Assembly (NCBI GenBank): GCA_009692465.1
Contig: SHZD01000003.1
Location: 15,121-79,120, forward strand
DNA: 64,000 bases
Direction of reading: 5' to 3'
Source: Myxococcales bacterium
GTDB lineage: Bacteria; Myxococcota_A; UBA9042
Part shown: piece by piece, positions 34,698-62,092 of the stretch
Layout: each line of letters begins with the position of its first letter
Numbering within the stretch: position 1 is the first letter of the stretch
Notes under the pieces: model-generated
Database searches by the model: none
Told to the model about the DNA's origin: nothing
Seen by the model: only the letters and a program-made list of their open reading frames with translations
Position numbers and translations under genes: made by a program

Positions 34698-37075
34698 GGG
34701 CCCGTTCAAAATCAAGTCGATTTTGCACCCCGGCCCACCGCTTGCTTGGTGGGTCGCTAACTCGCGGCTTTGCAAGCCGACTCGACGCTCCGTTCCAATC
34801 GTGGATCGACCAAGTTATTTTTTCACGAGCCCTTAATCGCCCGATTTCGGCTCGCATCGCAGTCGTTCTGGCGGCGCTAGTTGCGGCGACGGCTTGCAAA
34901 GCCCCGGTGCAGTCGGAAGACCCGCTGACGACGGTGACAGACGCGGATGCGGGCTTTGCCGGTACATTGGACGTCGCTGCCAGCGCCGATGGCGATGTGG
35001 GCAAGGCAGTTGCCGATGCAGCCAATGTCCAAGGCGAAGGCTTGAGCGACACTAGCGCCGGGCCGACCGACGCGACTGTGGCCGATGTCAGCGATGCAGA
35101 CGCCGCGAGCGCGCTCGACGATTCCACTGACTCCCAAACCCTGGACGCGGCAAGCACCGCCGATGCCAATGCCGAACTGGACGTCGATAGCGGCCAGCCC
35201 AGTGACAGTGGCGCCACGACGGCGTGCGACGACAGCGCCAAAGTGTGCCCGCAGGCCTTTGCGTATGCCGGCACCGGCAGCGAAACAGCGGTCGAAGTGC
35301 GCGGCAGCTGGAACGGCTGGAAGGCCGGCGGCGCGCTCACAGCCACGGGCACGACTTGGAACGGCACGGTCAAGCTGCCGCAATCCCAAATTTTTCAGTA
35401 TAAATTTCGAATAGTTCTGGCCGACGGCAAGGAGCTTTGGAAGCTCGACAGCGCCAATCCAATTAGCGCCGACGACGGATTTGGCGGCAAAAACTCGGTG
35501 GTCGGCCCCCTGCAATGCCCAAGCGACGGCATCTGCCCGCAACCGCAGACCTTGTGCGGCGCTCCGCTCAAAGCCAATGCCTTTGATTGGCGCGACGCGG
35601 TGTTGTACTTCGTGTTCGTCGATCGGTTCGTCAACGGCAATCCGGCCAATGACGGCAAGAATCCGGACAAGAATGTGCCCGCTATCGCCAATTGGCACGG
35701 CGGCGACTGGCTGGGGGTCAAGCAAAAAATCGACGACGGCTACTTTGGAGCGCTGGGCGTCAACGTCTTGTGGCTGACCGTACCCTTGGACAACACCGAC
35801 GCGGTTGAAATGGGTGATGAAGGCAAACCCTACACCGCCTACCACGGCTATTGGCCGCGGGATATCGACAAGCCAAACCCGCACTTTGGCAGCATGGCCG
35901 ATCTGAAGGCCCTTGTAGACGCCGCTCACGCCAAGGGCATCATGGTGATTCTGGACTACGCGATGAACCACTTGCACGCGTCGTCACCGACATTTTCTAA
36001 TCATCCCGAGTGGTTTCATCCACTCAAAGTCAACGGCCAATTCTGCACTTGCGGCAGCGGCGTGTGCCCGTGGGACGGACCCAGCGGGGTGTTTTGCTGG
36101 TTTCGCCAATATCTGCCCGACTTCGATTTTGACAACGCCGTCGCCCGCAAAGCATCGATCGACAACGTGATTTGGTGGATGGACCAGTCAGGTGCCGACG
36201 GGCTGCGCTTGGACGCGATCAAGCACGTTGAAGACATTTGGCTAACTGAGCTGCGCGCGCGCCTGAGCACCGAAGTCGAGCCCAAGCGCGGTCAACACAT
36301 CTGGCTGGTCGGCGAGACCTACACCGGCGATCAGGGCTTTATCAAGTCGTTTGTGGAGCCATGCACCAAGCTCGACGGTCAGTTCGACTTTCCGCTGCGC
36401 GCGGTGTTGGACAATGTCGTGCTGCTGCGCCAAGGCAAGATGCAGAATTTGCACAAGTTTGTCACCGCCAACGACAGTTTTTACGGACCGACCGCGCTGA
36501 TGTCGACCTTCGCTGGCAATCACGACCTGCCACGCATTATCCACTACGCTCAAGACAAACCGCTGTATAGCAACGTGTGGGATGTGGGCAAAGACAATGC
36601 GTTTTTCAACACCCCGACGCTTGTTGCCGAAAACAGCGCCTATCAACGGGTGGCTGTGGCGATGACGGTGTTGTACGGGTCACCCGGAGTGCCGCTGGTG
36701 TACTACGGCGACGAGATTGGGCTGCCGGGGGCAGGCGATCCGGACAATCGGCGACCCATGCAATTCAAGGACTTAAGCGATAATCAGAAGTGGTTGCTGG
36801 AGCAGCATCAAAAGCTGGGTCAAGCCCGCAAGGCCCACAGTGCGCTGCGGCGCGGGACGCGAACGACGCTGGCGACCACCGACGATGGCTGGCTGTGGGC
36901 GATGACCGACGCCAAGCAAACCGTGTGGGTGGCGGTCAACCGCGGGGATAATCCAGTAACTTTACAAGGGTTGCCTGCCGGTGAGGCCCTCAAAGACGTG
37001 CTGAGTGGCGAGACGCTGACGGGGCCCAATTGCGCCGTGCCGCCGCGAACTGGGCGAATTCTGGTTAAACAGTAG
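34670..37075 (+). CDS. glycoside hydrolase family 13 (alpha-amylase-like) lipoprotein with an acidic linker and an N-terminal carbohydrate-binding-type beta domain
   Basis: GH13 regions I-IV (DAVLYFVFVDRF, GLRLDAIKH, EtyT..., NHD). Lipobox-like VAATAC after the MITE-derived N-terminus. The true start is uncertain. Confidence 0.75.
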   Translation: MLFNGCILIRARSKSSRFCTPAHRLLGGSLTRGFASRLDAPFQSWIDQVIFSRALNRPISARIAVVLAALVAATACKAPVQSEDPLTTVTDADAGFAGTLDVAASADGDVGKAVADAANVQGEGLSDTSAGPTDATVADVSDADAASALDDSTDSQTLDAASTADANAELDVDSGQPSDSGATTACDDSAKVCPQAFAYAGTGSETAVEVRGSWNGWKAGGALTATGTTWNGTVKLPQSQIFQYKFRIVLADGKELWKLDSANPISADDGFGGKNSVVGPLQCPSDGICPQPQTLCGAPLKANAFDWRDAVLYFVFVDRFVNGNPANDGKNPDKNVPAIANWHGGDWLGVKQKIDDGYFGALGVNVLWLTVPLDNTDAVEMGDEGKPYTAYHGYWPRDIDKPNPHFGSMADLKALVDAAHAKGIMVILDYAMNHLHASSPTFSNHPEWFHPLKVNGQFCTCGSGVCPWDGPSGVFCWFRQYLPDFDFDNAVARKASIDNVIWWMDQSGADGLRLDAIKHVEDIWLTELRARLSTEVEPKRGQHIWLVGETYTGDQGFIKSFVEPCTKLDGQFDFPLRAVLDNVVLLRQGKMQNLHKFVTANDSFYGPTALMSTFAGNHDLPRIIHYAQDKPLYSNVWDVGKDNAFFNTPTLVAENSAYQRVAVAMTVLYGSPGVPLVYYGDEIGLPGAGDPDNRRPMQFKDLSDNQKWLLEQHQKLGQARKAHSALRRGTRTTLATTDDGWLWAMTDAKQTVWVAVNRGDNPVTLQGLPAGEALKDVLSGETLTGPNCAVPPRTGRILVKQ
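34695..34835 (+). mobile_element. MITE Family B copy 3
   Basis: TIR and internal palindromes conserved. Lies in frame at the 5' end of the GH13 ORF. Confidence 0.75.
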
Positions 37076-43422: not shown

Positions 43423-43574
43423 CTAAGAGCCCGTGCAAGAATTACTCGATCGATCCGCGACAGGAACGGAGCGTCGAGTCGGCTTGCAAAGCCGCGAGTT
43501 AGCGACCCACCAAACAAGCAGTGGGCCCAAGTGCAAAATCGGTTTGATTTTGCACGGGCCCTAACTCCGCGAAG
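43423..43574 (-). mobile_element. MITE Family B copy 4
   Basis: TIR TTAGGGCCCGTGCAA at both ends. Located ~265 bp upstream of the SurA-like lipoprotein gene, in the same relative orientation as the other copies. Confidence 0.75.
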
Positions 43575-46148: not shown

Positions 46149-47552
46149 TTGGCGTTGACGGCAGGTAAGCAGCGGCCTAAGTTGGCGCCGCCAAAGAACG
46201 AAAGAACGAGCGCCGCGGCCATGACCGAACCTGACAGCAAGACCACGCCTGCGGGCATCAGTTCGGACACTGAGCGCAGTCGCCGCCACACCCGAACCTA
46301 TAGCGACGGTTTTGTTGCGCTTGCCGCGCAAGATGGCGCAAGCGACCCCGCGCCGGTCGTTGCGGTTGCCGGCGAATCCGCCCATCGCCGCCAACGGCCC
46401 ACCTCGCAAACAGTGCTGGAGTTGCCGCAAGATCGCGCAGCGTTGGCCCTGCCGCAGATTCCCGACGAAGAGCTCATTGCCGTGGATGATCTGGCCACCG
46501 GCTCGCAGACCGCTGGCGGCAGTCAGTTCGTCGCCAGCGAAGTAGTTGATGCAAGTGAAGTTCTTGGAGCCAGCGAAGTGGCCGTGCTCGACGAAGGGGT
46601 CGTTGTCGGCGCAACGCACAGCGGCGGTTCAGCGCCCCGACCGAGCGTCAGTATTGCGTTGCATAAGCCCTTCGGTCAGCTTCGAAGCGACGCGACGCGC
46701 ACCGACACCCGCCAGACGCAGACCGCGCACACGGCGGTGGGGCCGGTGCCAGTGGCGCAACGGTCGACAGCCCGGCAGCCCGCGATCCGCAAGGCAACAG
46801 GCTGGTTTGGCCCAGTGGCGTTGCTGGCTGCGGCTCTGGCGGGCAGCGCGGCGGCGTGGCGGTTGGTGGGCCAGACGCCGGCAAGTGAGTCTAGTGGCGG
46901 CGCGCTTGAGGTTGCCGACGCGCCGGCAGTAGTCCCTGTCGCCAGTGCAGCGGTCGCGCACAGCGACGAATCCCAGGCGGCAGGCGCGGTCGCTGCTCCA
47001 ATCCGCGCTGGTGAGGCGGCCGAGGTTGTCGCGGCGGCAAGGCCGCAGCTGGGTCCGGTAGTCGCAGCGGTAGCGGACCCAGTAGCGATCCCAGCCCGAG
47101 TAGCGATCCCAGCCCGAGTAGCGATCCCAGCTGGGGTCGGTGCGAGTTCCGTCAGCGCTCAATCGCGGGTGGCGAATGAGCCTGCGCAACCGGCACTGCA
47201 ACCGGCACTGCAACCGGCACTGCAACCGGCACTGCAACCGGCACTGCAACCGGCACTGCAACCGGCACTGCCGTCGGCACCACCAGTGGCCAGCAAACCG
47301 CCACGGGCACCGGAATTGGCCGACTTGTGCCAGCGCGGGGCGTGGGTGGTCCAAGGCACCGCGGCCGATGCCGAGGCACCGTACTTGGCGTTGCGCGACC
47401 AGCCGCGAAATGACTCAAAATTACTAGCGAAACTTTCGGATGGCACCCGCGTCGGCTACGGTAGCCGCCAAGGTCGCTGGATTTGGGCACAGGTGTGCGC
47501 GACGGGTCAAGCGGGTTGGCTCAACCAGAAATGGTTGGCACCAGCGCGCTGA
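46149..47552 (+). CDS. membrane-anchored low-complexity protein with a C-terminal bacterial SH3 (SH3b) domain and an in-frame 12-bp x8 repeat (PALQ)
   Basis: One TM helix, (PALQ)n at 47190-47285, and a C-terminal SH3b-like block. Confidence 0.45.
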   Translation: MALTAGKQRPKLAPPKNERTSAAAMTEPDSKTTPAGISSDTERSRRHTRTYSDGFVALAAQDGASDPAPVVAVAGESAHRRQRPTSQTVLELPQDRAALALPQIPDEELIAVDDLATGSQTAGGSQFVASEVVDASEVLGASEVAVLDEGVVVGATHSGGSAPRPSVSIALHKPFGQLRSDATRTDTRQTQTAHTAVGPVPVAQRSTARQPAIRKATGWFGPVALLAAALAGSAAAWRLVGQTPASESSGGALEVADAPAVVPVASAAVAHSDESQAAGAVAAPIRAGEAAEVVAAARPQLGPVVAAVADPVAIPARVAIPARVAIPAGVGASSVSAQSRVANEPAQPALQPALQPALQPALQPALQPALQPALPSAPPVASKPPRAPELADLCQRGAWVVQGTAADAEAPYLALRDQPRNDSKLLAKLSDGTRVGYGSRQGRWIWAQVCATGQAGWLNQKWLAPAR

Positions 47553-47570
47553 TCCAGACAAGGGGATAGC

Positions 47571-48554
47571 ATGATCGTGATGGGCAGTAAGTCGTGGAAA
47601 CAAGGTGAACCTCTGGTGCGAATGGAGCTGGAGACGCCAGTTCCGGGCCGCAAACAAGTAGTGGTGGCGGTGCACTTTATCGGCGTCAATCCGGTGGATT
47701 GGAAAATGCGGCAATCCGGGCCGCTGCGTTTCGCCGCGCGGGCACTGGGGGCGATCCGCGGCCCCAAACCGCCGGTAGTCATCGGCGTCGATTTCGCGGG
47801 CGTCGTACAGGCCATCGGCAGCGACGTCACCACATTTGCGGTGGGCGACCGCGTAGTCGGTGGCAGCAATTTTTCGCGGGGTCAACGCGGCAGCTACGCG
47901 GACACCGTGATTGTGTACCCCGATCAGCTGTGCAAGCTGCCCGATTCGGTGCCCTTGGACATTGCCGGCTGCTTGCCGGTGGCCGGGGTGACCGCGCACA
48001 TGGCGCTGACCCAGTATTGCCCGATCAGTGCTGGAAAAAAGGTGCTGGTGCTGGGCGCTTCGGGCGGTGTCGGCCAGTTTGCGGTGCAGATCGCTAAGCA
48101 TGTGCTCAATGCGGACTTGGTGGCGGGGGTGTGCTCTGCAAAAAATGTCCAACTGGTCAAAGACTTGGGGGCCGACATCGTGTTGGACTACACCGCAGGC
48201 GACCCGCTGCTCGCCGCGCAGGCCCATGGCCCCTATGACGTCATTGTCGATGGCGTCGGCAGCTATCCGGCGGCCCATTGCCGCAAGTTGCTGACCAAGG
48301 ATGGAGCCCACATCATGGTCGCTGGGGATAAAGCGGAAAGTATGCTGCAAATTGCCGTGCCGCCATTCCAGAGCAAAGCCATCTTGGGCGCCCCCGACGG
48401 CCAGCATTTACTGCCGTTGGTGCAAGCGGTGGCCGAGGGCAAAGTTAAAGTCCTGATCGCCCATTGCCTGCCGTTGGCCGATGCCCAAAAAGCCCATGAT
48501 TTGAGCCAGGGCGGCCGGGTGGTCGGCAAAATTGTGCTCCAAGCCCGGCCCTAG
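47571..48554 (+). CDS. zinc-type alcohol dehydrogenase / NADPH:quinone oxidoreductase (MDR family)
   Basis: MDR fold with GASGGVG cofactor motif. 327 aa. The stop TAG is part of the CTAG terminus of MITE-C copy 1. Confidence 0.75.
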   Translation: MIVMGSKSWKQGEPLVRMELETPVPGRKQVVVAVHFIGVNPVDWKMRQSGPLRFAARALGAIRGPKPPVVIGVDFAGVVQAIGSDVTTFAVGDRVVGGSNFSRGQRGSYADTVIVYPDQLCKLPDSVPLDIAGCLPVAGVTAHMALTQYCPISAGKKVLVLGASGGVGQFAVQIAKHVLNADLVAGVCSAKNVQLVKDLGADIVLDYTAGDPLLAAQAHGPYDVIVDGVGSYPAAHCRKLLTKDGAHIMVAGDKAESMLQIAVPPFQSKAILGAPDGQHLLPLVQAVAEGKVKVLIAHCLPLADAQKAHDLSQGGRVVGKIVLQARP

Positions 48555-48769
48555 GAGCGTGTCGGAGTATTCCGGCTCGCTCCTAGGACCGTCTGGCTAG
48601 ACGGCGGCAACTGTCTGAAACTGCACAAATTTGATTGGGCCAGTTCTCCGGGCAGTTCTTGGACAGTTGAGAATATCTGAATGGCTAGGAGCCTGTCGGA
48701 TCGTAATAGATTCATTGTGTATAACCTGATAGACATTTAACAACCGATTAATTTCCGACAGGCTCTTAG
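48551..48769 (+). mobile_element. MITE-like Family C copy 1, a CTAG-bounded multi-hairpin element
   Basis: Four nested palindromes: ctaggagcg...cgctcctag, ccgtctggctagacgg, caactgtccgaaactgc...gcagtttcggacagttg, and ctaggagcctgtcgga...tccgacaggctcctag. Four copies in the window. Confidence 0.75.
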
Positions 48770-48780
48770 ACAGCCGACTA

Positions 48781-48862
48781 AATCGAATTTGCGCGGCGTC
48801 TCATTGCTGGTTTCGTGGGTGGCGAGCTTGCGCCTGGGGCGTCAAGCCGCTCCAGTATTGTT
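48781..48862 (+). repeat. Family D repeat adjacent to C copy 1
   Basis: Similar to 52685-52770 (reverse complement), 3140-3262 and 24745-24870. Confidence 0.5.
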
Positions 48863-48993
48863 CCGTAATTCTCGACCGTGTGGCCAGAATTGGTCAGCTC
48901 AGTAGCGAAACGCAGAAACGCAGCGGTACAGTCCCGCAATCGGTTTGCGCGTGGTAAATTGGCGGCCTAGTGCCCCGTGGCGCAGTTGGCAGC

Positions 48994-50550
48994 ATGGACA
49001 CCCTCGATCTTTCCCATCCGCTGCAACTGGACGACGTCGTTGCGGTTGCCCGTCAACAGGTTGTGGTCCAACTGGGCAGCGAGGGCCGCGCCAAGGTCCA
49101 AACCGCGCACGCGGTGGTGCAGGCGTTTGTCCGCGACCACACGATCGCGCGCTACGGCATCAATACCGGGTTTGGCGCGCTGGCCGAGGTGGTGATCGCC
49201 GACGACCAAATCGCCGCGTTGCAAACTAATCTGATTCGCTCGCACGCCTGCGGGGTTGGACCACTACTGCCGACCGACGTGGTGCGGGCAATGATGTTGC
49301 TGCGGGCCAAAGTGCTGGCGATCGGCCACAGTGGCGTTCGGCCACAAGTGATTGATACACTGTGTGAAATGCTAAATGCTGGCCTGCACCCGCTGATCCC
49401 TTCGCAGGGTTCGGTCGGGGCGTCGGGCGATCTGGCGCCGCTGGCGCATTTGGCGCTGGTCTTGACTGGCGAAGGGCAAGCGGAGATCGGCGGCGTGGCT
49501 ATGACCGGGGCCCAAGCGCTGCAGCAAGCGCGGATTGCGCCGATCGCCTTGCAGGCCAAAGAAGGTTTGTCGCTGATCAATGGCACCCAGGCGATGACCG
49601 CGATCGCGGTATTGGCGTTGGATCGATCGCAAAACATATGCGATTGCGCGGACTTGACTGGATCCATGGCGGTAGAGGCGCTGCTGGCTACCGATAAGGC
49701 CTTTGACGCCCGCATCGTTGCGCTGCGGCCGCATCCGGGCGCGCTGCAAAGTGCAGCTAATCTGAGAGCTTTGACGGCCGACAGCCCGCTGATTGCCAGC
49801 CATGCCGGACCGGCCGATCGCAAGGTGCAAGACCCGTACTCGATCCGCTGCATGCCGCAAGTGCACGGGGCGGTGCGCGACGCCCTGCAGTTTGTTCGCG
49901 GCACGCTGCAAGTCGAAATCAATGCCGTCACTGATAATCCGCTGATCTTTCAAAATGAAAGTGGTGACGCCACCCATACTACCATCTTGTCAGGCGGCAA
50001 TTTTCACGGTCAGCCGGTGGCGATTGCCTGCGATGTCGCCCGGCTGGCGTTGGTCAGTTTGGCCTCGATGTCGGAGCGGCGCATTGAGCAACTGGTCAAT
50101 CCTACGCTCAATTCTGGCTTGCCCCCGTTCTTGGCGCGCAACAGTGGCTTGAACTCGGGCTTTATGATTGCCCAAGTGACGGCGGCAGCATTAGTGAGTG
50201 AGAGTAAAGGTTTGTGTATGCCGGCCTCGGTTGATTCGATTCCCAGCTCGGCCAACAAGGAAGACCACGTGTCGATGGGGCCGATTGCCGCCCGTCGCTG
50301 GGCCGAAGTCGTGGCTAACTGCGAGACTGTCCTGGCAATTGAGTTGCTTTGTGCGGCGCAGGGCATCGACCAACGCGCGCCCTTGCAACCGGCTCCGGCG
50401 ACGGGCGCGGCGTGGCAAGTTTTGCGGCAACGAGTGAGCCTGATGGAGCAAGATCGTGTTTTGTATCCAGATATTGCCACAGCGACCGAGTTAGTTCGCA
50501 GCGGTGAACTGCTTTTTGCAGCGCGGTCTGCCTTCGGCCAACGTCGCTAA
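48994..50550 (+). CDS. hutH: aromatic amino acid ammonia-lyase family (HAL/PAL/TAL, MIO cofactor), most likely histidine ammonia-lyase
   Basis: GSVGASGDLAPLAHL carries the Ala-Ser-Gly MIO-forming triad. SH motif at LIRSHACG. ~518 aa. No other hut genes are nearby. Confidence 0.6.
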   Translation: MDTLDLSHPLQLDDVVAVARQQVVVQLGSEGRAKVQTAHAVVQAFVRDHTIARYGINTGFGALAEVVIADDQIAALQTNLIRSHACGVGPLLPTDVVRAMMLLRAKVLAIGHSGVRPQVIDTLCEMLNAGLHPLIPSQGSVGASGDLAPLAHLALVLTGEGQAEIGGVAMTGAQALQQARIAPIALQAKEGLSLINGTQAMTAIAVLALDRSQNICDCADLTGSMAVEALLATDKAFDARIVALRPHPGALQSAANLRALTADSPLIASHAGPADRKVQDPYSIRCMPQVHGAVRDALQFVRGTLQVEINAVTDNPLIFQNESGDATHTTILSGGNFHGQPVAIACDVARLALVSLASMSERRIEQLVNPTLNSGLPPFLARNSGLNSGFMIAQVTAAALVSESKGLCMPASVDSIPSSANKEDHVSMGPIAARRWAEVVANCETVLAIELLCAAQGIDQRAPLQPAPATGAAWQVLRQRVSLMEQDRVLYPDIATATELVRSGELLFAARSAFGQRR

Positions 50551-50636
50551 ACCCCTTTGAAAATACATCTCTTTTTTGCGACAGGCTGGGCAACGCCGCA
50601 AAACCCTTTGCTTCAGGCTCCAAAATCGGCTAGACT

Positions 50637-52130
50637 TTGGCCGACGACGCAACTTCGCGACGACTGCGCTCTGAGGCGCTCCCACTTGTGGATCCTGAAC
50701 CCCTGTTAGCGACAACTACGGTCGCTGCGCTCAACGACGGCCTGACGCTGTCCGTGCTCCTGCTCATTGGTTCGCTGGTTACCTGCTTCCTGTTTGCCGG
50801 AACAGAGACCGCGATCATGTCGATGGGCGAAATGCGCATCAAGAAATTGCTGGAAAGCCATCACGGCCCCGACGGTTTTTTGCAGTTGTGGCTACATAAG
50901 CCTTCGGAAGTATTAACGACTCTGCTGACCGGCAACACGTTGTCTTCGGTCGCGGCGTCGTCGATCGCCACCTCTCTGACGTTGTCGTTGTGTGTCCGTT
51001 ACGGCTTGTCGAACGGAGTGACCGACTGGGTGCTGGCTGCGGCAGTGACCGCATTGGGCGCTGTGCTGCTGATTGCCTGCGAAATTGCTCCCAAGACTTT
51101 GGCCAAGCACCACCCGGATTGGTTCTTGCAGCCGATGCATGTGGTGTGGATTTTTCACCGGTCGACGCGGTGGTTCTCTCAAGTCATGATTTGGGCCGCC
51201 ATGTTCATCGTTCGGCGGCTGGGTGGCGGTTCGCTGCCGACGGCCAATGAGGTCACCGAAGCGCAGATTGAAGACATGGTGCGAATGGGCAACGAATCTG
51301 GCAGCTTGCCCGAAGATGAAGGCGACATTTTGCAGGGCGTGTTCAAGTTGTCGGAGACGTCGCTGACGATGATCATGACCCCGCGCACCAAAATGGCCGC
51401 CTTGCCGATCGACGCCACGCGCGAGGAAGTGCTGGCCGAAGTGCGTGGCAGTCGCTGGTCGCGCTATCCGGTCTACAGCAAGACGCCGGACGCGATCGTG
51501 GGTTTTTTCTACACCAAGGACTTGTTCGATCCCAAGATTGCCTACGACCCCTTTTCGAACAAACCGCGGTTGTTTCGGTTGGCTGACCACTTGCACCAAC
51601 CGATGCGGCTACCGGCGACTATGAAGGCGATCGACGCGCTCAAGGCCTTTCAGAGCAAGAAGATGCACTTGGCGATCGTTACCGACGAGCACGGCGGCAC
51701 CGAAGGCATCGTGTCGCTAGAGGACGTGATCGAAGAATTGGTCGGTGATATTTACGACGAATATGACGAGCCCAAAGTGGCGATCGTCCAGACCGCTGCG
51801 AGTAAGTGGACGCTGGATGGCGACACTGAACTGCGCGAACTTGCAGACACTTTCGGTTTGGAATTGCCCGAAATGGAGTCTACTACCGTTGGCGGCTTCG
51901 TCGTCGAGCAAATCGGCCATTTGCCAGCAGTCGGCGCCGAGATGCATTGGCGCGAGCTGACATTCCGGGTGTTGGAAGCCGACGACACGCGGGTGAAGCG
52001 TCTGGAACTGCTGTACAATCCAGCCAGAGCCAAGACGCCTCAGGCTCACCCCGCCGCCCGGCGCCAGACGGGAACGTTCTCTACGCTGCCACTTGCGCCG
52101 GCGAATTGGCCGGTGTCGGCGGATAACTAG
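50637..52130 (+). CDS. CNNM/CorC/TlyC-family membrane protein (DUF21 + CBS pair + CorC_HlyC domain)
   Basis: N-terminal TM DUF21 region, two CBS motifs, and a C-terminal transporter-associated domain. Confidence 0.7.
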   Translation: MADDATSRRLRSEALPLVDPEPLLATTTVAALNDGLTLSVLLLIGSLVTCFLFAGTETAIMSMGEMRIKKLLESHHGPDGFLQLWLHKPSEVLTTLLTGNTLSSVAASSIATSLTLSLCVRYGLSNGVTDWVLAAAVTALGAVLLIACEIAPKTLAKHHPDWFLQPMHVVWIFHRSTRWFSQVMIWAAMFIVRRLGGGSLPTANEVTEAQIEDMVRMGNESGSLPEDEGDILQGVFKLSETSLTMIMTPRTKMAALPIDATREEVLAEVRGSRWSRYPVYSKTPDAIVGFFYTKDLFDPKIAYDPFSNKPRLFRLADHLHQPMRLPATMKAIDALKAFQSKKMHLAIVTDEHGGTEGIVSLEDVIEELVGDIYDEYDEPKVAIVQTAASKWTLDGDTELRELADTFGLELPEMESTTVGGFVVEQIGHLPAVGAEMHWRELTFRVLEADDTRVKRLELLYNPARAKTPQAHPAARRQTGTFSTLPLAPANWPVSADN

Positions 52131-52185
52131 TTGCAGTCCTTAAACACTACAGCGCGAGCCACCCGAACCTAGGCGGCACTGGGCT

Positions 52186-52333
52186 CGGCGGCACTGGGCT
52201 CGGCGGCAGTGGCCTAGGCGGCAGTAGTCTAGGCGGCAGTAGCCTAGGCGGCAGTAGTCTAGGCGGCAGTAGTCTAGGCGGCAGTAGTCTAGGCGGCAGT
52301 AGTCTAGGCGGCAGTAGTCTAGGCGGCAGTGGT
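52186..52333. repeat. 15-bp tandem repeat x ~9 (CTAGGCGGCAGTAGT) at the 3' end of grxD
   Basis: The first unit encodes the C-terminal TTAA plus stop of grxD on the minus strand. Every further unit repeats ThrThrAlaAla-stop in frame. Confidence 0.85.
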
Positions 52334-52651
52334 CTCGGCGACCGCCGCCTTGAGCATCGGCTCCAATTGGCCGTTTTGGTACAGGTCAACGGTGATGTCA
52401 CAGCCGCCGACCAATTCGCCCTTGACGTACAACTGCGGCACGGTCGGCCACTGACCGTACTGCTTGACGCCCTCGCGAATGTCCGGATCTTGCAGGACAT
52501 TGACCGTTGAAAACGCCACGCCGCAGGCCTTGAGGGCCTCGACGGTTCGCGCCGAAAATCCGCACATGGGCATGGCGGGCGTGCCTTTCATGAACAGCAC
52601 GACCGGCTTTGAGTGAACGAGTTCGTCGATTTCTTTTTGAACATCACGCAT
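52319..52651 (-). CDS. grxD: monothiol glutaredoxin Grx4/GrxD (CGFS type)
   Basis: CGFS active site (PMCGFS) and the WPTVPQLYV..GG.D motif. Start chosen at MRDVQKEID. Confidence 0.85.
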   Translation of the reverse strand: MRDVQKEIDELVHSKPVVLFMKGTPAMPMCGFSARTVEALKACGVAFSTVNVLQDPDIREGVKQYGQWPTVPQLYVKGELVGGCDITVDLYQNGQLEPMLKAAVAETTAA

Positions 52652-52684
52652 CTGCGATTCTCCTAGAGAGCCGATCAACTAAGA

Positions 52685-52770
52685 TTTGCTCGGCGTCTCC
52701 TTGCTTGTTTTGTGGGTCGCGAGCGTGCGCCCGGGGCGTCTCGCCGCTCCACTTTTGGTTGGCAGTTCTT
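52685..52770 (-). repeat. Family D repeat adjacent to C copy 2
   Basis: Sequence similarity to the other D copies. Confidence 0.5.
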
Positions 52771-52799
52771 TCCGTTAAAGCCTTAGCTGGGTTAGGTCC

Positions 52800-53019
52800 C
52801 TAGGAGCCTGTCGGAAATCAATCGGTTATGAAATGTCTATCAGGTTATACACAATGAATCTATTACGATTCGACAGGCTCCTAGCCATTCAGATATTCTC
52901 AACTGTCCAAGAACTGCCCGGAGAACTGGCCGAATCAAATTCGTGCAGTTTCGGACAGTTGCCGCCGTCTAGCCAGACGGCGCTAGGAGCGAGTCGGAAT
53001 ACTTCGACACGCTCCTAGA
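52800..53019 (-). mobile_element. MITE-like Family C copy 2
   Basis: Full-length copy in reverse orientation. Its terminal CTAG provides the bolA stop codon. Confidence 0.75.
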
Positions 53020-53251
53020 CTGCTGGTTGGGCGAGCGGCCGCGTCTTGAGGCCGAGCGCGTGGATTTCGTAGCCAACGCGCTCACCGAGCGCTGCATACA
53101 CCGCGCGGTGCTGGACGATCATGGACTGGCCGACGAACTGAGGGGCGGCCACCTCAACTTCAAAGTGATCGCCGCCGCCGGTGGTGTCGGTAACGGAAAT
53201 CTGGGCGCCGGCAAACGCCTGGGCCAAGGTCGCTTCGATCCATTCTTTCAT
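53015..53251 (-). CDS. bolA: BolA family protein
   Basis: About 78 aa with the BolA fold and a conserved HF.V.V..P.F.G motif. Paired with grxD in the classic Grx4-BolA arrangement. Confidence 0.7.
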   Translation of the reverse strand: MKEWIEATLAQAFAGAQISVTDTTGGGDHFEVEVAAPQFVGQSMIVQHRAVYAALGERVGYEIHALGLKTRPLAQPAV

Positions 53252-53442
53252 CGGTGCCGCGCCTGTGCCGCCAAGGAACTGGCGGGGTGCCAAAATAGGC
53301 GTCGCCCCGCCGCGCGCAAGGTCTTGCGTGGATCTGCGCCAGACGACACACCTTTGTTGGGCACCTCGAGCCTGCTTGACGGCCGTCGCGGCCTCGGCTT
53401 TGCTGTGTGGGTCGGCTTCAGCCAGTCGGCAGCCAAGGGCCG

Positions 53443-54498
53443 ATGAGCAACAGTGCCAGTGCGCCGGTGATCGGGGTCGTCACTAATCCCAATAGCCAGA
53501 AAAATCGAGCCAATCCACAGCGCTATGAGCAGATGCGTGCGGTGGTCGGCGACTTGGGGCTGGTGCGGCGCACCCAGGACGTGACCGCGATCGCCAATGT
53601 GGTGCGCGAGTTCTTGGCGGCCGGGATACGCTATTTCGTGGCCGATGGTGGCGACGGGGCCTTTCACTGGCTGATGAACACCATCTGGCAGGTTTTGGAC
53701 AAGGACAACACTGCCAATTGGCCAGCGATCTTGCCAACTAACGCCGGCACCATCGACTTTGTCGGCCGCAAAGCCGAGGTCATCGGCGGTTGCGATCAGT
53801 TGCTGCCCGAATTGGTGCGCTTGATCGACAGCGGCGGGGCCCCCAAGATTGTGCGCTTGCCGACCTTTGACCTGCGCGGGACCTACGGGCCCAACGCCGA
53901 CTTTCCGGGCAAACCCTTTGAAAAACTTGGGTTTGCCACCGCGGTGGCCGGCATCAGTCAGCGCTTCTTTGATAAGTTCTATGCCCACGATCGCCAAGAT
54001 GGGCCGGGGATCGCTTTTTTGGTGGCCAAGATCTTGAGTTCACAGGCGTCGCGCACACCGCTACTGAGTTGGGTGCCGATGCCGGTGGGTTGGCGCTACT
54101 TTGGCGAACCGGTGTTTGAAGGTATCCCGGCTGAGGTGTGGCTCGACGGCGAAAAACTGCCAATTGCCGTGTTCCGCGATCTGGATATTGGAGCGATCGA
54201 TATCAATATCAAGAATATGTTTCGATTTTTTCCGCTTGCTCATACCGGCGAGCACCTGCACGTCCAGTGTGGCGATCTGAGTCCCCTGGATGTGCTGAAA
54301 AACCTGCCGCGGATGGCCACAGGCAAGACAATGAGCATTGACAACTACGTGCAGCGACAAGTGAAACACGTTAAAGTTGTGCCGTTGCAAGGGCGCACAC
54401 TCGATCCTGTTATCGACGGCGAACTGTACTGGGGTTTGCAGAGTTGCGAGTTGTCGATGGGGCCGAAGGTGCCGGTGGTCCAGTTGCAGGCGCCGTGA
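53443..54498 (+). CDS. DAGK_cat-like lipid kinase family protein (YegS/BmrU-like), atypical GGDGA motif
   Basis: IGVVTNPNSQ...VADGGDGAF resembles the diacylglycerol-kinase catalytic domain. ~350 aa. Confidence 0.4.
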   Translation: MSNSASAPVIGVVTNPNSQKNRANPQRYEQMRAVVGDLGLVRRTQDVTAIANVVREFLAAGIRYFVADGGDGAFHWLMNTIWQVLDKDNTANWPAILPTNAGTIDFVGRKAEVIGGCDQLLPELVRLIDSGGAPKIVRLPTFDLRGTYGPNADFPGKPFEKLGFATAVAGISQRFFDKFYAHDRQDGPGIAFLVAKILSSQASRTPLLSWVPMPVGWRYFGEPVFEGIPAEVWLDGEKLPIAVFRDLDIGAIDINIKNMFRFFPLAHTGEHLHVQCGDLSPLDVLKNLPRMATGKTMSIDNYVQRQVKHVKVVPLQGRTLDPVIDGELYWGLQSCELSMGPKVPVVQLQAP

Positions 54499-54622
54499 GG
54501 CTATCCCCGCCAGTCAACTGAATCAGTCGTCGAGCGCCGGGGTGGGGGACAGGCACCAAGCCGCAGTTGCGCGCCGAATGTCCGCGCAAAATCTTGATGT
54601 TGCTCACTATTTCAGCGACAGA

Positions 54623-55621
54623 CTACCAAAACCCTAACCAGCCGCTGGCCAACGGCCGCGTGTGCACCGAATCGCCGTGGTCGCTGCCATGCTGCACGAA
54701 CCAGTCATAGCTTTGCCGCAGCGCTTCGCCATCCGAATGGACGGGCTGCCAGACCAACTGCGCGCAAGTCTGGGTGATATCAAAAGAAAGTGGCCGACCG
54801 TACAGCCGCGCGTGGTACGGCGCCACCACCCCCAACGGCAGTGCCGCCGCCATCCGCAGCGCCGTGCGCACGCCGAAGTCGGGGAGGTGCAGCAGGCGAC
54901 TGCCCGTCCCCGCGTGATCGCACAGCCCGCGCAACAGCGAACGCAAGGCGATTGGCCGCGCCGAACCGGCTAGAAACGGCCCCGCGTGCGGGCAATGGGC
55001 CGCAGCCACGCACAGTCGGGCCAAATCATCGGCGTGGACAAACTGGTACACCGCGGCGCCATCGCCCACCACTACCACCGGTCTGCCGCGGCGCACCCAG
55101 TCAAACAACAGCGAGAACAGCCCGAGGCGGCCCGGGCCCAGCACCGTGCGCGGCCGCACCACCGCCACTGGCAGGCCGGCATCGGCATACAGGTGCGCCA
55201 GTTGGTCGGCGGCCAGCTTGGAGCGGCCATAGGCCTCCAGAGGCTGCGCTTCGCTGGTCATGGTCACTGGCAGCTCCGCAGGAGCCCCATACACGGCGCT
55301 TGAGGACACCACCACTACTTTGGCCACAGCGTGATCGGCGGCCGCCCGCAGCACATTGCGGGTGCCCTCCACATTGACGCTGGCGAACAGTTGCCGATTG
55401 CGCGCTAGGGGCACCGCGGCGGCAGCATGAATCACCCAACGCGTGTCGGCCATGGCGCGGTGCACTGCAGCAAAATCGCGGACATCCCCTTGGACAGCCT
55501 GAGCGCCAGCAATGGAACACGGCGCGATGTCGAACACCCGCACACGCTCGCCGGCTTGCAGCAAGCCGCTCACGATAGCCCGACCACAAAATCCGGCGCC
55601 GCCGGTGACTAGCCAGTGCAT
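54623..55621 (-). CDS. NAD-dependent epimerase/dehydratase family protein
   Basis: N-terminal TGGAGFCG Rossmann motif. SDR-extended fold. Confidence 0.7.
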   Translation of the reverse strand: MHWLVTGGAGFCGRAIVSGLLQAGERVRVFDIAPCSIAGAQAVQGDVRDFAAVHRAMADTRWVIHAAAAVPLARNRQLFASVNVEGTRNVLRAAADHAVAKVVVVSSSAVYGAPAELPVTMTSEAQPLEAYGRSKLAADQLAHLYADAGLPVAVVRPRTVLGPGRLGLFSLLFDWVRRGRPVVVVGDGAAVYQFVHADDLARLCVAAAHCPHAGPFLAGSARPIALRSLLRGLCDHAGTGSRLLHLPDFGVRTALRMAAALPLGVVAPYHARLYGRPLSFDITQTCAQLVWQPVHSDGEALRQSYDWFVQHGSDHGDSVHTRPLASGWLGFW

Positions 55622-55749
55622 GGCACCCTACGTCGTCTCAGTGGAATACCTAACTAATTCAGAAGTGTGGCCCGAAATCACCCGTGTCACCGATAGCCAG
55701 CCTTGATCCCACTGGATTGCATGAAAGCAAAGCCGCGGAATTTAATGCT

Positions 55750-56787
55750 CTAAATTCGAACGCCGCGCTGCAAGGCATCGGCGATGCTGCGGCGCATGCC
55801 CTCTTCTAAGCTGACTTGCGGGGCGAAACCCAGCTCGGCCTGGGCGCGGCCGACGCTGCAGGCGATGTCCTTGTCCATTTCCGACAACACGTGGATTTTC
55901 TGATGGTACAGGCCCAGCGACTGCAGCGCGCGATCCAAAGAGTGGGCCACAGTGGACGCCAAGTGGGGCAAGCGCAGGCGCTTGGAACTGCACGGCAGGC
56001 CGAAGTCCCGTTCCAGCACGGCCTGCACCGTATCGATGATTTCGCGCATCGGATACGGGCGCTCATCGGCAATCCAATAGGTTCGACCGTTGATGCCGGC
56101 AGTGCGCCCGCACAAGTCCATGCCTTGACAGACGTTGTCCACGTAACCCATGGAACGCAAGTTGCTGCCGTCGCCGACTAGCGGCGCTTTGCCAGCGCGA
56201 ATCATCTGAAAAAACAAGGTCTGGCGGGCCGGTTGACCGGGACCGTAGAACCACGGCGGGCGCACCACCACGGCTTCCATCACCCCTAGAGCGGCGATGC
56301 GGTGCACCACGCTCTCGGCCAAACGTTTGCTGTGACCGTAGTTGAGAAACGGCCGATCCTCGCTCATTTCGTCAAACAACGCCGTGCGATGCGGATTGAT
56401 GCCGGCGGGACTATTGGAGGACACGTAGACCATGCGCCGCACACCGGCGATTTGGGCAGCCGCGGCCAGGTTTTGGGTGCCCACAAAGTTCAGCTCGTAC
56501 AGGTCGGCGATCCGTGCAGGGTGAATCAGACCGGCGCAATGGAAAAGCACCGCGCCGGCAGAGTCACGCAAGAAGCTGTGCAAGCTTGGAGGGTCACGCA
56601 AGTCGCCGCTGGCCACTTCGACGCCCATCTGGCGCAGAGCCGTGGCGTCTTGGCCCGGCTGCACTAGACACCGCACCGCAAAACCGGGTTGCCGCGGCAG
56701 ATTGTCGTCCAACCCGCCCGCCTGCAGCCACTGCGCCAGCCGCGAGCCGAGCCAGCCGGGCGTGCCTGTTACGAGAGCTAGTTGTTG
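55750..56787 (-). CDS. NAD-dependent epimerase/dehydratase family protein
   Basis: Start chosen at MQQLALVTGTPGWLG. YxxxK context present. ~345 aa. Confidence 0.65.
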   Translation of the reverse strand, partial: QQLALVTGTPGWLGSRLAQWLQAGGLDDNLPRQPGFAVRCLVQPGQDATALRQMGVEVASGDLRDPPSLHSFLRDSAGAVLFHCAGLIHPARIADLYELNFVGTQNLAAAAQIAGVRRMVYVSSNSPAGINPHRTALFDEMSEDRPFLNYGHSKRLAESVVHRIAALGVMEAVVVRPPWFYGPGQPARQTLFFQMIRAGKAPLVGDGSNLRSMGYVDNVCQGMDLCGRTAGINGRTYWIADERPYPMREIIDTVQAVLERDFGLPCSSKRLRLPHLASTVAHSLDRALQSLGLYHQKIHVLSEMDKDIACSVGRAQAELGFAPQVSLEEGMRRSIADALQRGVRI

Positions 56788-57011
56788 CATGTAGGTCTTG
56801 CGCCACCGATTTTGGCGACCGAGCAGGCCGCGGCGGCGGATTGTCGCACATCGGCGGACAGCGTGCGATCGGAGGCTCGACGAGCATTGGGCGTTGCGGA
56901 TCGGTGTGCTGTGGAGCGGTTTCCGGCACGGTTGCTCCGCGAAGACCCTTGGCCCACAATGACGGCGATCGTTGTCGTCGGCGGTCGCCATCCCAATTCG
57001 CTGGAGTTCCC

Positions 57012-57560
57012 ATGCGCATCGCCATCGTCGGTTCGGCCGGCAGCGGCAAAACCACGCTGGCCAAAGCCCTCGCTGCGCAGCTCAATTGCCCCTACCTAGC
57101 TGACACCATCCCGTTGGTCCTGCGCGACCGCGGCCGCGATTCGTGGCGCGGCGTCGACTCCGCCGACCGGCGCAAGATCCGCGAGGAGGCCTTGACGCGC
57201 AAGCTGCGTCTGGAGGCCGAGCACGACCAGTTCGTCTCGGACAAGAGCGTCATCGATTACTTGGCCTATTGGCTGCAAAATCAGAGCGAATATGAGCAGC
57301 GCCACGTCAGCGATGCGTTTTTGGAGCAGTGCAAGGACGGCGCCAAGCGCTACGACTTGCTGCTATTTTTACCGTTTCGCCCCGAAGTCGAATTTGCGGT
57401 CGGCCGCAATCAAGATCCCAACCACAATCTCAAGGTCGCGGCGCATAAGCGTGGCCTGCTGGTGCTGTTGGGGCTGCCGCACGTCGAGGCGCCGTATACG
57501 TTTGGCGAAAATATGGCGGCGTGGGCGGCGCGCTGGTTGCCAGCGGTGCCCGCGCCATGA
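57012..57560 (+). CDS. P-loop NTPase (AAA_28 / NadR-kinase-like small ATPase)
   Basis: Walker A motif GSAGSGKTT at the N-terminus. 182 aa. Confidence 0.5.
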   Translation: MRIAIVGSAGSGKTTLAKALAAQLNCPYLADTIPLVLRDRGRDSWRGVDSADRRKIREEALTRKLRLEAEHDQFVSDKSVIDYLAYWLQNQSEYEQRHVSDAFLEQCKDGAKRYDLLLFLPFRPEVEFAVGRNQDPNHNLKVAAHKRGLLVLLGLPHVEAPYTFGENMAAWAARWLPAVPAP

Positions 57561-57635
57561 AGCGAGCGACGCTGGCTCGAGGGGTGGCGGCATTTTGCCT
57601 CGCGGCGGTAGGGAGTTTTGGCGGGCGCCTGACAA

Positions 57636-57760
57636 CTAATCCGTGCGACTAATCCGTGCGACTAATCCGGGCGACTAATCCGGGCGACTAATCCGGGCGA
57701 CTAATCCGGGCGACTAATCCGGGCGACTAATCCGTTAATCCGTGCGACTAATCCGTGCCC
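57636..57760. repeat. 12-bp tandem repeat x ~9 (GACTAATCCGKG)
   Basis: Direct tandem copies in the intergenic region. Each unit contains TAA. Confidence 0.85.
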
Positions 57761-57945
57761 CTGCTGAACACAGCGCGCCTGCGCACGCCAACGGCCGCCC
57801 GCAAGCAGTTGACCCCACCGCCAGTCACGGCGATCATGCCGCCCGCGTCGGCGGTCTCTGAGCACATCGCCTCCACAAAACCGTCGCGATTTCAATAACT
57901 CACCGCGCGGCCCTGCGCCGCTAGGCCTTGCACAGGAAGCCCCTT

Positions 57946-58935
57946 ATGACCAAGCCCATCGTAGTCGCAGTCACCGGCGCGGCCGGCAATATCGGTTACT
58001 CATTGCTGTTTCGCCTCGCCTCTGGCGAAACTTTTGGCGACCGGCCGGTGATCCTCAAACTGCTCGACTTGCCGATTGCGGAAGCCCAAAAAAAGCTCGA
58101 AGGCACCGCGATGGAAGTGCTCGATTGCGGCTTTAAAACCCTAGTCGGCGTGCAATGTAGCGGCGACGCCAACGTGGCTTTCGACGGCGCCTCGTGGGTG
58201 TTGCTGGTGGGCAGCAAGCCGCGCGGTCCGGGCATGGCGCGTGCGGATTTGATTCGCGAAAACGGCCCGATTTTTGTGGGCCAAGGCAATGCCCTGCAGC
58301 GCGGCGCCAGCGACATGCGGGTTCTAGTGGTCGGCAACCCGTGCAACACCAACTGCCTGATCGCCGCCAGCAACTGCGCCGGGGTCCCCAAGGAGCGTTT
58401 TAGCGCCATGACGCGACTCGACGAAAACCGCGCGATCGCCCAACTCGCCGGCAAAGCGGGCTGCACCAACGCCGAAATCGCCGGGCTGACCGTGTTTGGC
58501 AACCACAGCGAGTCGATGTACCCCGATTTTGAGAACGCGACGATCCGCGGCCAACCGGCCACCAACGTCATCGGCGACCTCAACTGGCTGCAGACCACGT
58601 TTGTGGCCAATGTCCAAAATCGCGGCAAGGCGATTATCGCAGCGCGCGGGCTGAGTTCGGCGGCATCGGCGGCATCGGCGGCCATTGACCACGTGAAAGA
58701 CTTCGAGCGCGCCACCCCAGCGGGCCAGTGGTTTTCGGCGGCAGTGTGGTCCGAGGGCTCGTATGCGTCGCCTGCAGGCATCTACACCTCGCTGCCGGTG
58801 TCTTCCGATGGCAAGGGCGGCTACAGCGTGGTCCAGGGCCTGCAGCTGTCGCCGTGGGCGCAGGACAAGGTGGCCGCCACCAACAAGGAATTGCTCGACG
58901 AACGCGCGGTGGTCGCCGATTTGCTCAAAGGCTAG
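57946..58935 (+). CDS. mdh: malate dehydrogenase (LDH-like family)
   Basis: VTGAAGNIGYSL NAD-binding motif and a catalytic His/Arg context. The stop TAG lies inside the CTAG end of MITE-C copy 3. Confidence 0.85.
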   Translation: MTKPIVVAVTGAAGNIGYSLLFRLASGETFGDRPVILKLLDLPIAEAQKKLEGTAMEVLDCGFKTLVGVQCSGDANVAFDGASWVLLVGSKPRGPGMARADLIRENGPIFVGQGNALQRGASDMRVLVVGNPCNTNCLIAASNCAGVPKERFSAMTRLDENRAIAQLAGKAGCTNAEIAGLTVFGNHSESMYPDFENATIRGQPATNVIGDLNWLQTTFVANVQNRGKAIIAARGLSSAASAASAAIDHVKDFERATPAGQWFSAAVWSEGSYASPAGIYTSLPVSSDGKGGYSVVQGLQLSPWAQDKVAATNKELLDERAVVADLLKG

Positions 58936-59138
58936 GAGCCTGTCGGAAATCAATCGGTTATGAAATGTCTATCAGGTTACACACAATGAATCTAGTACGA
59001 TCCGACATGCTCCTAGCCAGTCAACTATTGTCAACTGTCCGAGAACTGCCCGGAGTGAATCCGTGTAGTTTCAGACAGTTGCCGCCGTCTAGCCAGACGG
59101 CGCTAGGAGCGAGACGGAATACTCCGACACGCTCCTAG
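58932..59138 (-). mobile_element. MITE-like Family C copy 3
   Basis: Full-length and CTAG-bounded at both ends. Lies between mdh and sdhC. Confidence 0.75.
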
Positions 59139-59227
59139 CCCAATGGCCCAAACACCGAAGGCAGCGGTTCCCACTGCCACTGAGCACGGCTGCTGCGCCA
59201 CAGGCCAGCCACGAGGAGGGGATTGCC

Positions 59228-59974
59228 GTGGAAGGCGACGTTGTTTCGGTCCAACCTGCTGGCGTGGCCAAGGTGGTCGCGCGCCTGACCCAGTCGTCGC
59301 TTGGCCTCAAAGCGCTGGTGGCTGTGACCGGCTTGGGCCTAGTGGCCTTTGCCTTTGTGCATATGGCCGGGCACTTGCAGATGTTCGCGCTGCTGGGCGG
59401 CCAAGAGGGCTACAACCAGTACGCCCACAAGCTGCAATCGCTGGGCGCGCTGAAGTGGGCGGCCCGCGCTGGCCTGTTGGCGCTGACGCTGGTGCACGTC
59501 ATCGCTACGTTAAAGCTGATTGCCCGCAATCGCAGCGCGCGGCCGATTGGTTACGCCAGCAACCACTGGCTGACCGCGAGCGTGGCCAGCCAGACCATGC
59601 GGGTGACTGGGCCAATATTACTGTTCTTCATTATTTATCACCTGTTGCACTTTACCGCGCTGGTGGTCTCGGCGCAGGGCTACGAGGCGATGGAGTACAT
59701 GCTGCGCGATGGCAGCAATTTGGTGGTCGGTGATGCCTACGGTCGGATGGTCCAGGCGTTCCGCGATCCGCTGCTGACGGTGGTGTATGTGCTCGCCGTG
59801 GGCTTGCTAGGCGTGCACCTTGCTCACGGAATTTCAAGTCTTTTTCAAACCTTGGGCCTGACCAACAGCACCTATCGGCCAGCTCTGGCGACCGCGGGGC
59901 CGCTGCTGGCTGGGCTGCTGACCGCGGGCTTTGCAGTGGTGCCACTGGCGATACTCACTGGAGTCATTCAGTAA
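59228..59974 (+). CDS. sdhC: succinate dehydrogenase cytochrome b558 subunit (Bacillus-type SdhC)
   Basis: Five TM helices with conserved His ligands. Followed by sdhA and sdhB. Confidence 0.7.
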   Translation: MEGDVVSVQPAGVAKVVARLTQSSLGLKALVAVTGLGLVAFAFVHMAGHLQMFALLGGQEGYNQYAHKLQSLGALKWAARAGLLALTLVHVIATLKLIARNRSARPIGYASNHWLTASVASQTMRVTGPILLFFIIYHLLHFTALVVSAQGYEAMEYMLRDGSNLVVGDAYGRMVQAFRDPLLTVVYVLAVGLLGVHLAHGISSLFQTLGLTNSTYRPALATAGPLLAGLLTAGFAVVPLAILTGVIQ

Positions 59975-60058: not shown

Positions 60059-60160
60059 ACTGGCACTGCTGCATCTGCCCCCATCCAAGTCGAGCTCTTG
60101 CTCGTTGCCATCAAGGGCAGTTGCTCCTTTCCACTTTGAGCCACAGCAAAGGGTGCGGCC

Positions 60161-62083: not shown

Positions 62084-62092
62084 GAGGCGCCC

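Follow-up and report, generated by a model that had tools for sequence, protein, structure and literature searches.

We analyzed a 64,000-nt stretch of DNA from a Myxococcales bacterium (positions 15,121 to 79,120 of contig SHZD01000003.1; here termed the window) that carries, within 14.4 kb (48551 to 62975), four copies of a short repeat punctuated by the tetranucleotide CTAG. We propose, with a probability of roughly 0.8, that this repeat is a composite nonautonomous transposon, i.e., a miniature inverted-repeat transposable element (MITE), that is built from ends of IS1182-family insertion sequences (IS), inserts at CTAG, and is tolerated where this tetranucleotide holds a C-TAG stop codon. 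The ends of the repeat match the inverted repeats of full-length IS1182-family elements, relatives hold empty sites with a single CTAG, and ends of this type overlap stop codons more often than control sites do. That the repeat is a mobile element is ordinary; what seems new is a modular composite with a conserved structured core and a stop codon preference quantified across phyla. Our literature search, which was limited, returned no description of this end sequence, of MITEs combining IS1182 ends with a CTAG target, or of MITEs at stop codons.

Four copies of a modular element

Full copies follow the plan CTAG-A-CTAG-M-CTAG-B-CTAG, all junctions being CTAG. Module A is a 36-nt palindrome, CTAG-GAGCGTGTCGGA-GTAT-TCCGRCTCGCTC-CTAG, in which GTAT separates two 12-nt arms. 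Module B is an 85-nt inverted-repeat module, CTAG-GAGCCTGTCGGA-53 nt-TCCGACAGGCTC-CTAG, in which the 12-nt arms enclose 53 nt of A+T-rich DNA. In the core, M (85 to 98 nt), a short hairpin rich in G+C (CGCCGTCTGGCTAGACGGCG) is followed by a long one whose stem has 17 bp (CAACTGTCYGAAACTGC...GCAGTTYYGGACAGTTG) and then by a 15-nt A+T-rich tail. The initial annotation, made from the sequence alone, had described two CTAG-bounded palindromic modules and two internal hairpins; this architecture is as described, except that the distal repeat of the first copy is TTAG instead of CTAG.

That first copy, c1, is a full composite of 219 nt on the plus strand (48551 to 48769), with A at 48551 to 48586, M at 48587 to 48684 (short hairpin, about 48588 to 48607; long hairpin, 48608 to 48669; tail, 48670 to 48684), and B at 48685 to 48769. 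The full composites c2 and c3 lie on the minus strand: c2 (219 nt, 52800 to 53018) has B at 52800 to 52884, M at 52885 to 52982, and A at 52983 to 53018, and c3 (207 nt, 58932 to 59138), located between mdh and sdhC, has B at 58932 to 59016, M at 59017 to 59102, and A at 59103 to 59138. The long-hairpin loop of c3 is 12 nt shorter than those of c1 and c2. Because mdh and sdhCAB are neighbors in every relative (27 to 177 nt apart), c3 is probably transcribed. Copy c4 (125 nt, plus strand, 62851 to 62975) is without module B and consists of A (62851 to 62886), M (62887 to 62971), and a single CTAG (62972 to 62975). All four copies reported in the initial annotation are thus present, with c2 ending at 53018 rather than 53019 and c4 at 62975 rather than 62976.

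Identity between copies ranges from 88 to 97% in pairwise comparisons, the closest pair being c3 and c4 (97% over A-M). Since c4 retains a single CTAG where B is missing and is 97% like c3, it fits a precise loss of B, presumably by deletion or excision between the CTAGs that flanked it. From their size and build, the copies are probably without coding capacity; open reading frames (ORFs) inside them were screened at a minimum of 80 aa. The insertions c2 and c3 are not an assembly artifact, because the gene spacing around both is identical in a second, independently made assembly of this organism (ENA ERZ1305449, a contig of 6,976 nt). In a repeat search of the window, c1 and c2 appeared as a 219-nt inverted pair, 95% complementary, which brackets a 4-kb block of lyase, CNNM, and grx genes (48551 to 53018). 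Recombination between the two could in principle invert this block; the gene order is the same as in relatives, so that no inversion has happened in the window.

The ends match those of IS1182-family elements

The outer ends of the element, CTAGGAGCGTGTCGGA and CTAGGAGCCTGTCGGA, agree at 15 of 16 positions and thus form terminal inverted repeats. The end sequence, written after the CTAG, is GAGCSTGTCGGA (also written GGAGCCTGTCGGA and GGAGCSTGTCGGA). With up to two mismatches allowed, the end motif CTAGGAGCNNGNCGGA occurs 15 times in the window versus 1.2 times expected, a count reached in 0 of 100 shuffles, and 14 of the 15 matches fall inside the four copies. We then scanned one genome per species for CTAGGAGCNTGTCGGA and found such ends in at least 117 loci across many phyla; the matches listed cover Gamma-, Beta-, and Deltaproteobacteria, Acidobacteria, Actinomycetota, Rokubacteria, Planctomycetota, Verrucomicrobia, Spirochaetes, and others. 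For many of these listed matches, the contig ends about 100 nt away, a pattern expected of IS elements present in multiple copies.

Among the same matches, spans bounded by two inverted ends measure 53 to 277 nt, with a cluster at 167 to 170 nt, and a separate class measures 1.5 to 1.8 kb. Elements of the latter class encode one long ORF with the Pfam domains DUF772 and DDE_Tnp_1 or DDE_Tnp_1_6. Two of these transposases pass the NCBIfam model of IS1182 (NF033551, cut-off of 270 bits), with 330 bits for locus L044 and 276 bits for L015, and the truncated proteins of L057 and L092 reach 247 and 236 bits, respectively. A tblastn search placed the same transposase next to the end in 8 loci; the ends themselves are carried by these four loci as well as by L106 and L113. 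At L044, the element has perfect 22-nt inverted repeats, CTAGGAGCGTGTCGGAGAAATG, which match the arms of module A. At the level of sequence, the ends of the window element are identical to the inverted repeats of full-length IS1182-family elements, and because of this match, modules A and B can be read as paired IS1182-family ends without a transposase between them.

The initial annotation had called the element an IS5-like MITE. Its classification as a MITE-type nonautonomous transposon holds, given its short length, its terminal inverted repeats, its multiple copies, and the duplication seen when filled and empty sites are compared (see below). The assignment to IS5 does not, since the transposases on elements with the same ends belong to IS1182, a sister family separate from IS5, and score 56 bits on the IS5 model (NF033581) against a cut-off of 140.

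The sole exact match to the end sequence in our limited literature search is a PCR primer for Geobacter sulfurreducens, OmcE_fwd (GAGCCTGTCGGACTTGGAAAT), which starts with an IS1182-type end (PMC11077965); a copy of such an element probably adjoins omcE in that genome.

Empty sites in relatives and duplication of CTAG

Three of the four copies share a terminal CTAG with the stop codon of a host gene. The gene for an MDR-type NAD(P)-dependent alcohol dehydrogenase (47571 to 48554, plus strand) has its TAG stop at 48552 to 48554, in the proximal CTAG of c1; bolA (78 aa; 53015 to 53251, minus strand) ends in a TAG that is the reverse complement of 53015 to 53017, within the CTAG that closes c2 on its A side; and the malate dehydrogenase gene mdh (57946 to 58935, plus strand) ends in a TAG at 58933 to 58935, within the CTAG that bounds c3 on its B side. 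The initial annotation had placed these three stops inside terminal CTAGs, which we confirmed, the position given for bolA being one base off. At the fourth copy, the gene for an sdhB-like iron-sulfur subunit (62093 to 62842, plus strand) has its TAG stop at 62840 to 62842, 8 nt upstream of c4 and no part of the element.

We carried out the comparison with empty orthologous sites that the initial annotation had suggested and found such sites for bolA and mdh, together with a more distant case for the MDR dehydrogenase. In L127, whose BolA is 95% identical, bolA ends ...GCCCAAACAGCAGT-CTAG-AGAGCTGACC... (CAGCAGT before CTAG), with one CTAG that holds the stop and no element, while the window reads ...GCCCAACCAGCAGT-CTAG-(219 nt)-CTAG-GGACCTAACC...; the flanks of the two sequences align on both sides of the 219-nt gap, up to the start codon of grx. 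In L118, the closest relative by Mdh (86% identical), mdh ends AAGGGCTAGCGC / CTCAAGGGCTAGCGC with a single CTAG and no element, and the spacer between mdh and sdhC is 90 nt. In L125, the MDR dehydrogenase (69% identical) also has a CTAG stop, with the ends GCGCGCTAGG / GCGCGCTAGGCG and no element; in other relatives, the stop of this gene is TGA or TAA. At the compared sites, the complete composite is present or absent as one unit.

Because relatives end the same genes in a single CTAG without the element, the stops and their CTAG predate the insertions. The comparison thus supports the proposal of the initial annotation that CTAG is the duplicated target, L127 and L118 having one CTAG where the window has CTAG-element-CTAG. 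It also decides between two options offered there: insertion was directed at a stop codon context, as the empty sites already end the gene in CTAG, and the element does not define the 3′ ends, the stops being older. Judged from these alignments, one CTAG is the target and the second arose on insertion, a duplication that regenerated the stop. Either all 4 bp or only the TA within CTAG may be duplicated, as both models predict the same sequence and as L008 and L022, the two elements whose flanks deviate from CTAG but retain TA on both sides, are readable either way.

This ambiguity bears on the possibility that the element is a MITE of the IS630/Tc1-mariner type, inserted at CTAG with duplication of the central TA. 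The flanks agree equally well with the form C-TA-(G...C)-TA-G and with a 4-bp duplication, and the TA kept on both sides in L008 and L022 is consistent with the former. Every full-length element with these exact ends, however, encodes an IS1182-type DDE transposase (DUF772 plus DDE_Tnp_1), and no IS630-type protein was found on them, which makes this origin very improbable. We regard as slightly more improbable still that the element is a palindrome of the REP/REPIN type (repetitive extragenic palindromes and mobile doublets thereof) moved by a RAYT (IS200/IS605-like) transposase. Module A, 36 nt long, is indeed an extragenic palindrome, and both A and B are reminiscent of inverted REP doublets, but the ends are identical to IS1182 inverted repeats, the head is CTAG-GAGC, with CTAG as the duplicated target, rather than a GTAG-type REP head, and the clean target duplication at the empty sites is unlike the REP pattern.

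Overlap with stop codons across phyla

Beyond the three stop overlaps in the window, we considered 135 ends among the matches listed from the at least 117 loci. In 50 of them (37%), the terminal TAG closes an open frame of at least 80 codons, versus 13 and 22 (10 to 16%) in the control frames. Among other CTAGs of the same loci, this in-frame class accounts for 14% and is the rarest (odds ratio, 3.5; p = 3e-9). When the comparison is restricted to CTAG sites outside called ORFs, stop overlap is still about 2-fold enriched (p = 0.013), this control being a crude one that relies on a greedy ORF set and disregards selection against insertions into promoters. The 37% overlap over 135 ends in many phyla suggests that the stop codon habit is a general strategy of a widespread IS1182 subgroup.

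CTAG is under-represented in the window, with 122 occurrences where base composition predicts 224. Leaving aside the element copies and tandem arrays, 59 CTAGs are coding, 26 are intergenic, and 6 are called stops; if only noncoding insertions are tolerated, stops therefore make up a quarter to a third of the usable sites. By crude gene calls, 21 of 42 stop codons in the window are TAG, 13 are TGA, and 8 are TAA, an unusual order for a bacterium with 61% G+C; in about half of the 21, the TAG follows a C.

The residual 2-fold enrichment could mean that the transposase actively homes to gene 3′ ends or stop codon contexts, for example by recognizing hairpins or terminators as IS1272 does, beyond what CTAG and selection account for. 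A precedent exists in the same family, as IS1272 and TnSha1 enter terminator hairpins (PMC4923244, PMC5678879). In 50 complete elements, however, no palindromic symmetry is seen in the 10-nt flanks of the duplicated CTAG (0.14 to 0.36 complementary per position versus 0.25 by chance), the base before the CTA of the terminal CTAG is unbiased among the matches listed, and the set of tolerated sites against which the enrichment was measured is crude. We therefore consider active homing unlikely, though the least unlikely of the rival explanations.

A composite with a conserved core in related lineages

The composite plan recurs, with diverged sequence, at L122, L029, L196, L096, and L114. The first of these belongs to a relative whose Mdh is 80% identical, L029 to another Myxococcales metagenome-assembled genome (MAG), and L196 is a metagenome contig with the module order of the window. 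The cores of L096 and L114, both from one MAG labeled Deltaproteobacteria, were found by a covariance model of core M (R1), with 73 and 48 bits, respectively. Three of these composites start on stop codons: the first CTAG of the composite at L122 is the stop of an ATP-grasp gene, and the terminal CTAGs at L096 and L114 are the stops of frames of 508 and 523 codons. A metagenome scan for GCTCCTAG-N75-100-CTAGGAGC yielded 120 loci, among which only L196 is a real composite, the rest being chance matches to the 16 specified bases; in a separate metagenome scan, the exact 24-mer of module A had no match. Modules A and B change sides between lineages, and L114 has another palindrome where L096 has B, which indicates that the end modules are interchangeable.

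Core M is present in at least five related lineages of the Myxococcota type. In an alignment of seven cores, 91% of the cells are paired, versus 29 to 42% in slid controls, and 19 of 28 pairs show compensatory changes; none of 500 shuffles reaches these values. At the tip of the long hairpin, three lineages have the loop TTCAC, and two have TTAC or TTTAC. We also tried to read this hairpin as a decayed IS end and rejected the idea, because the CTGTC-GAAA that the window copy shares with the end sequence is not shared by the other lineages.

Such conservation raises the question of whether the element is mainly a structure that the host has selected at 3′ ends, as a terminator, an mRNA-stabilizing stem, or an RNA signal similar to REP or BIME (bacterial interspersed mosaic elements), with mobility explaining only its spread. 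The element folds strongly on both strands (z-scores of -7.6 and -6.6 versus shuffled sequence), both hairpins of the core are kept in five lineages with covariation and a conserved TTCAC-type loop, and stop overlap exceeds that at CTAG sites outside called ORFs by about 2-fold, as noted above. On the other side, no hairpin is followed by a T-run, and close relatives manage the same genes without the element. Relative to the upstream gene, the core points one way in five cases and the other way in three, and the alignment holds 8 G-U pairs versus 5 A-C mismatches, which singles out no strand. A scan of positions 47500 to 63500 for intrinsic terminators placed none of 20 terminator-like sites (hairpin plus T-run) on an element hairpin, Rfam 15 gave no match at gathering score in the whole window and only generic microRNA hairpin models on the element at E values up to 1, and promoter-like matches touching the junction of B and M were no more frequent than in shuffles. 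The bidirectional terminator envisaged in the initial annotation is not borne out by the terminator and Rfam searches, and we hold selection by the host as the main cause to be quite unlikely, less likely than active homing.

A narrower idea is that core M alone is a functional structured module, carried by IS1182-type end modules through the Myxococcota-like clade and onto gene 3′ ends. It could act as an RNA or single-stranded-DNA signal, for instance in 3′-end processing or stability, or it may be bound by the transposase or by a host factor. We consider this doubtful; if true, the composite would be a MITE that carries a regulatory cargo and for which stop codons serve as safe sites of insertion, and an example of structured noncoding cargo spread by MITEs.

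Proposed mechanism

We propose that module A is the minimal end-to-end palindrome of inverted IS ends and module B the same kind of ends with 53 nt between them, both flanking core M. An IS1182-type transposase acting in trans would use the outermost ends, so that the whole unit of 207 to 219 nt moves; if it instead engaged the end pair of A or of B, these modules could move alone. Insertion at CTAG would leave CTAG on both sides of the element. With CTAG scarce and most of its occurrences inside genes, a C-TAG stop would be one of the few harmless targets: insertion there would regenerate the stop, leave the protein unchanged, and be tolerated, and selection would remove harmful insertions. 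Three of the four copies would then share a terminal CTAG with a stop because C-TAG stops are harmless, regenerated targets.

Several points weigh against this proposal. A tblastn search with the L044 transposase covered the 64-kb window and the contigs retrieved from close relatives and found no IS1182 transposase gene in either. Characterized IS1182 members differ in target, as IS1272 inserts into hairpins without duplication (PMC4923244) and ISPsy36 targets GGCC (PMC8027508), so that CTAG targeting would be a property of this subgroup. By our own arithmetic on the CTAG counts of the window, three of four insertions on stops is only marginally above a random choice among harmless CTAGs (P of about 0.05 to 0.08). 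Finally, the covarying, conserved hairpins of the core are not needed in a purely selfish element and hint at an added function.

If correct, the proposal explains in simple terms how a compact genome can be saturated by a mobile element without harm, by way of a 4-bp palindromic target that contains a stop codon and is duplicated on insertion. It also matters for annotation and assembly, as such elements break metagenomic contigs and, sitting on stop codons, can be mistaken for terminators or regulatory RNAs.

Other repeats in the window

Three tandem arrays in the window start at or contain the stop codon of a gene. The array at 52169 to 52340 consists of 11.5 units of the 15-mer CTAGGCGGCAGTAGT, which repeats the last four codons and the stop of grx, its last CTAG (52319) being the grx stop; it fills the spacer between the convergent genes CNNM and grx, which in relatives is 9 nt long and without an array. 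The array at 63004 to 63105 (31-mer, 3.3 units) lies directly beside c4 and contains the CTAG stop (63089) of a metH-like gene, and the array at 59965 to 60064 (20-mer, 5 units) has the TAA stop of sdhC in its first unit. It seems that this genome tolerates local expansion at the 3′ ends of its genes or that these ends are prone to it.

Several dispersed families were also seen. Two inverted copies of a 145-nt repeat (24874 to 25002 and 30709 to 30845) are 92% identical; the first is bounded by CTAG, and the CTAG at 24999 is the stop of a minus-strand gene (24999 to 27143). This family may represent a second CTAG-targeting element. The window has four copies of a motif about 70 nt long, GGAGCGGCGAGACGCCCCGGGCG...ACAAGCAAGGAGACGCCGAGCAAA (52663 to 52731, 48762 to 48834, 24807 to 24873, and 3196 to 3268), two of them adjoining c1 and c2. 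The motif is also present at L127, the relative with 95% identical BolA, where it occupies the orthologous position upstream of grx (1648 to 1715), and at L196 (8230 to 8290); one of its strands shows a terminator-like hairpin with a T-run. Four copies of a family of about 140 nt, 83 to 87% identical and in both orientations, lie at 9419 to 9562, 28355 to 28448, 34697 to 34838, and 43423 to 43564. A motif of about 47 nt ending in ATGTTGTTYAATGGGTGCCACCTGATCA has six to seven direct copies (1192, 1314, 12188, 12323, 12468, 34482, and 34651), three of them spaced 135 to 145 nt apart at 12188 to 12514. Lastly, a minus-strand ORF of 2,118 codons (3261 to 9617) has many internal Cys/Asp-rich repeats, and the repeat families D3, D4, D6, D7, and D11 lie inside it.

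Comparison with known systems

The closest known system is the IS1182 family itself (ISPse1, IS1272, and ISPsy36). The terminal inverted repeats of the window element are the same as those of full-length elements that pass the NCBIfam IS1182 model, and the family prefers palindromic or structured targets (PMC4923244). A trapped family member, ISPse1, has inverted repeats identical at 16 of 16 nt and a 4-bp direct repeat, to which the 16-nt inverted repeats and 4-bp direct repeat found here correspond (PMC3281130). The window element differs in its length of 125 to 219 nt, in having no transposase gene, and in its CTAG target, where IS1272 takes hairpins without duplication (PMC4923244) and ISPsy36 takes GGCC (PMC8027508); conversely, the full-length elements are without the composite build.

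Like ordinary bacterial MITEs, the element is short, noncoding, and multicopy, has inverted repeats and a target duplication, and is intergenic, a position in which MITEs are often cotranscribed with their neighbors. The Correia elements of Neisseria are bacterial MITEs comparable to it. The proteobacterial MITEs of 167 to 170 nt that have the same ends fold into one long hairpin each, whereas the window element forms four distinct hairpins, both of its extremities consist of a complete pair of ends, and CTAG marks its junctions.

Members of the IS630 family, such as IS630 and IS870, target CTAG with duplication of TA, and IS870 takes the TAG of the target as the stop of its own ORF. The window element resembles them in its CTAG target and in the tie between the target TAG and a stop codon; its ends belong to another transposase family, and the TAG is the stop of a neighboring host gene, not of an ORF of its own. 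REP, BIME, and REPIN sequences of enterobacteria and pseudomonads are likewise extragenic palindromes at gene 3′ ends that form mosaic clusters with possible effects on mRNA; they differ in mobilizing enzyme and end sequences, and the empty sites of the window element show a clear target duplication.

The composite build itself recalls transposons made of two MITEs, such as the MITE-flanked integrons of Acinetobacter and the TIME-COMP structures. In both cases, a cargo is enclosed by two nonautonomous modules with inverted repeats, and the complete structure can be moved through its outer ends; in the element described here, the cargo is about 85 nt of structured noncoding DNA, and the entire unit is the size of a MITE.

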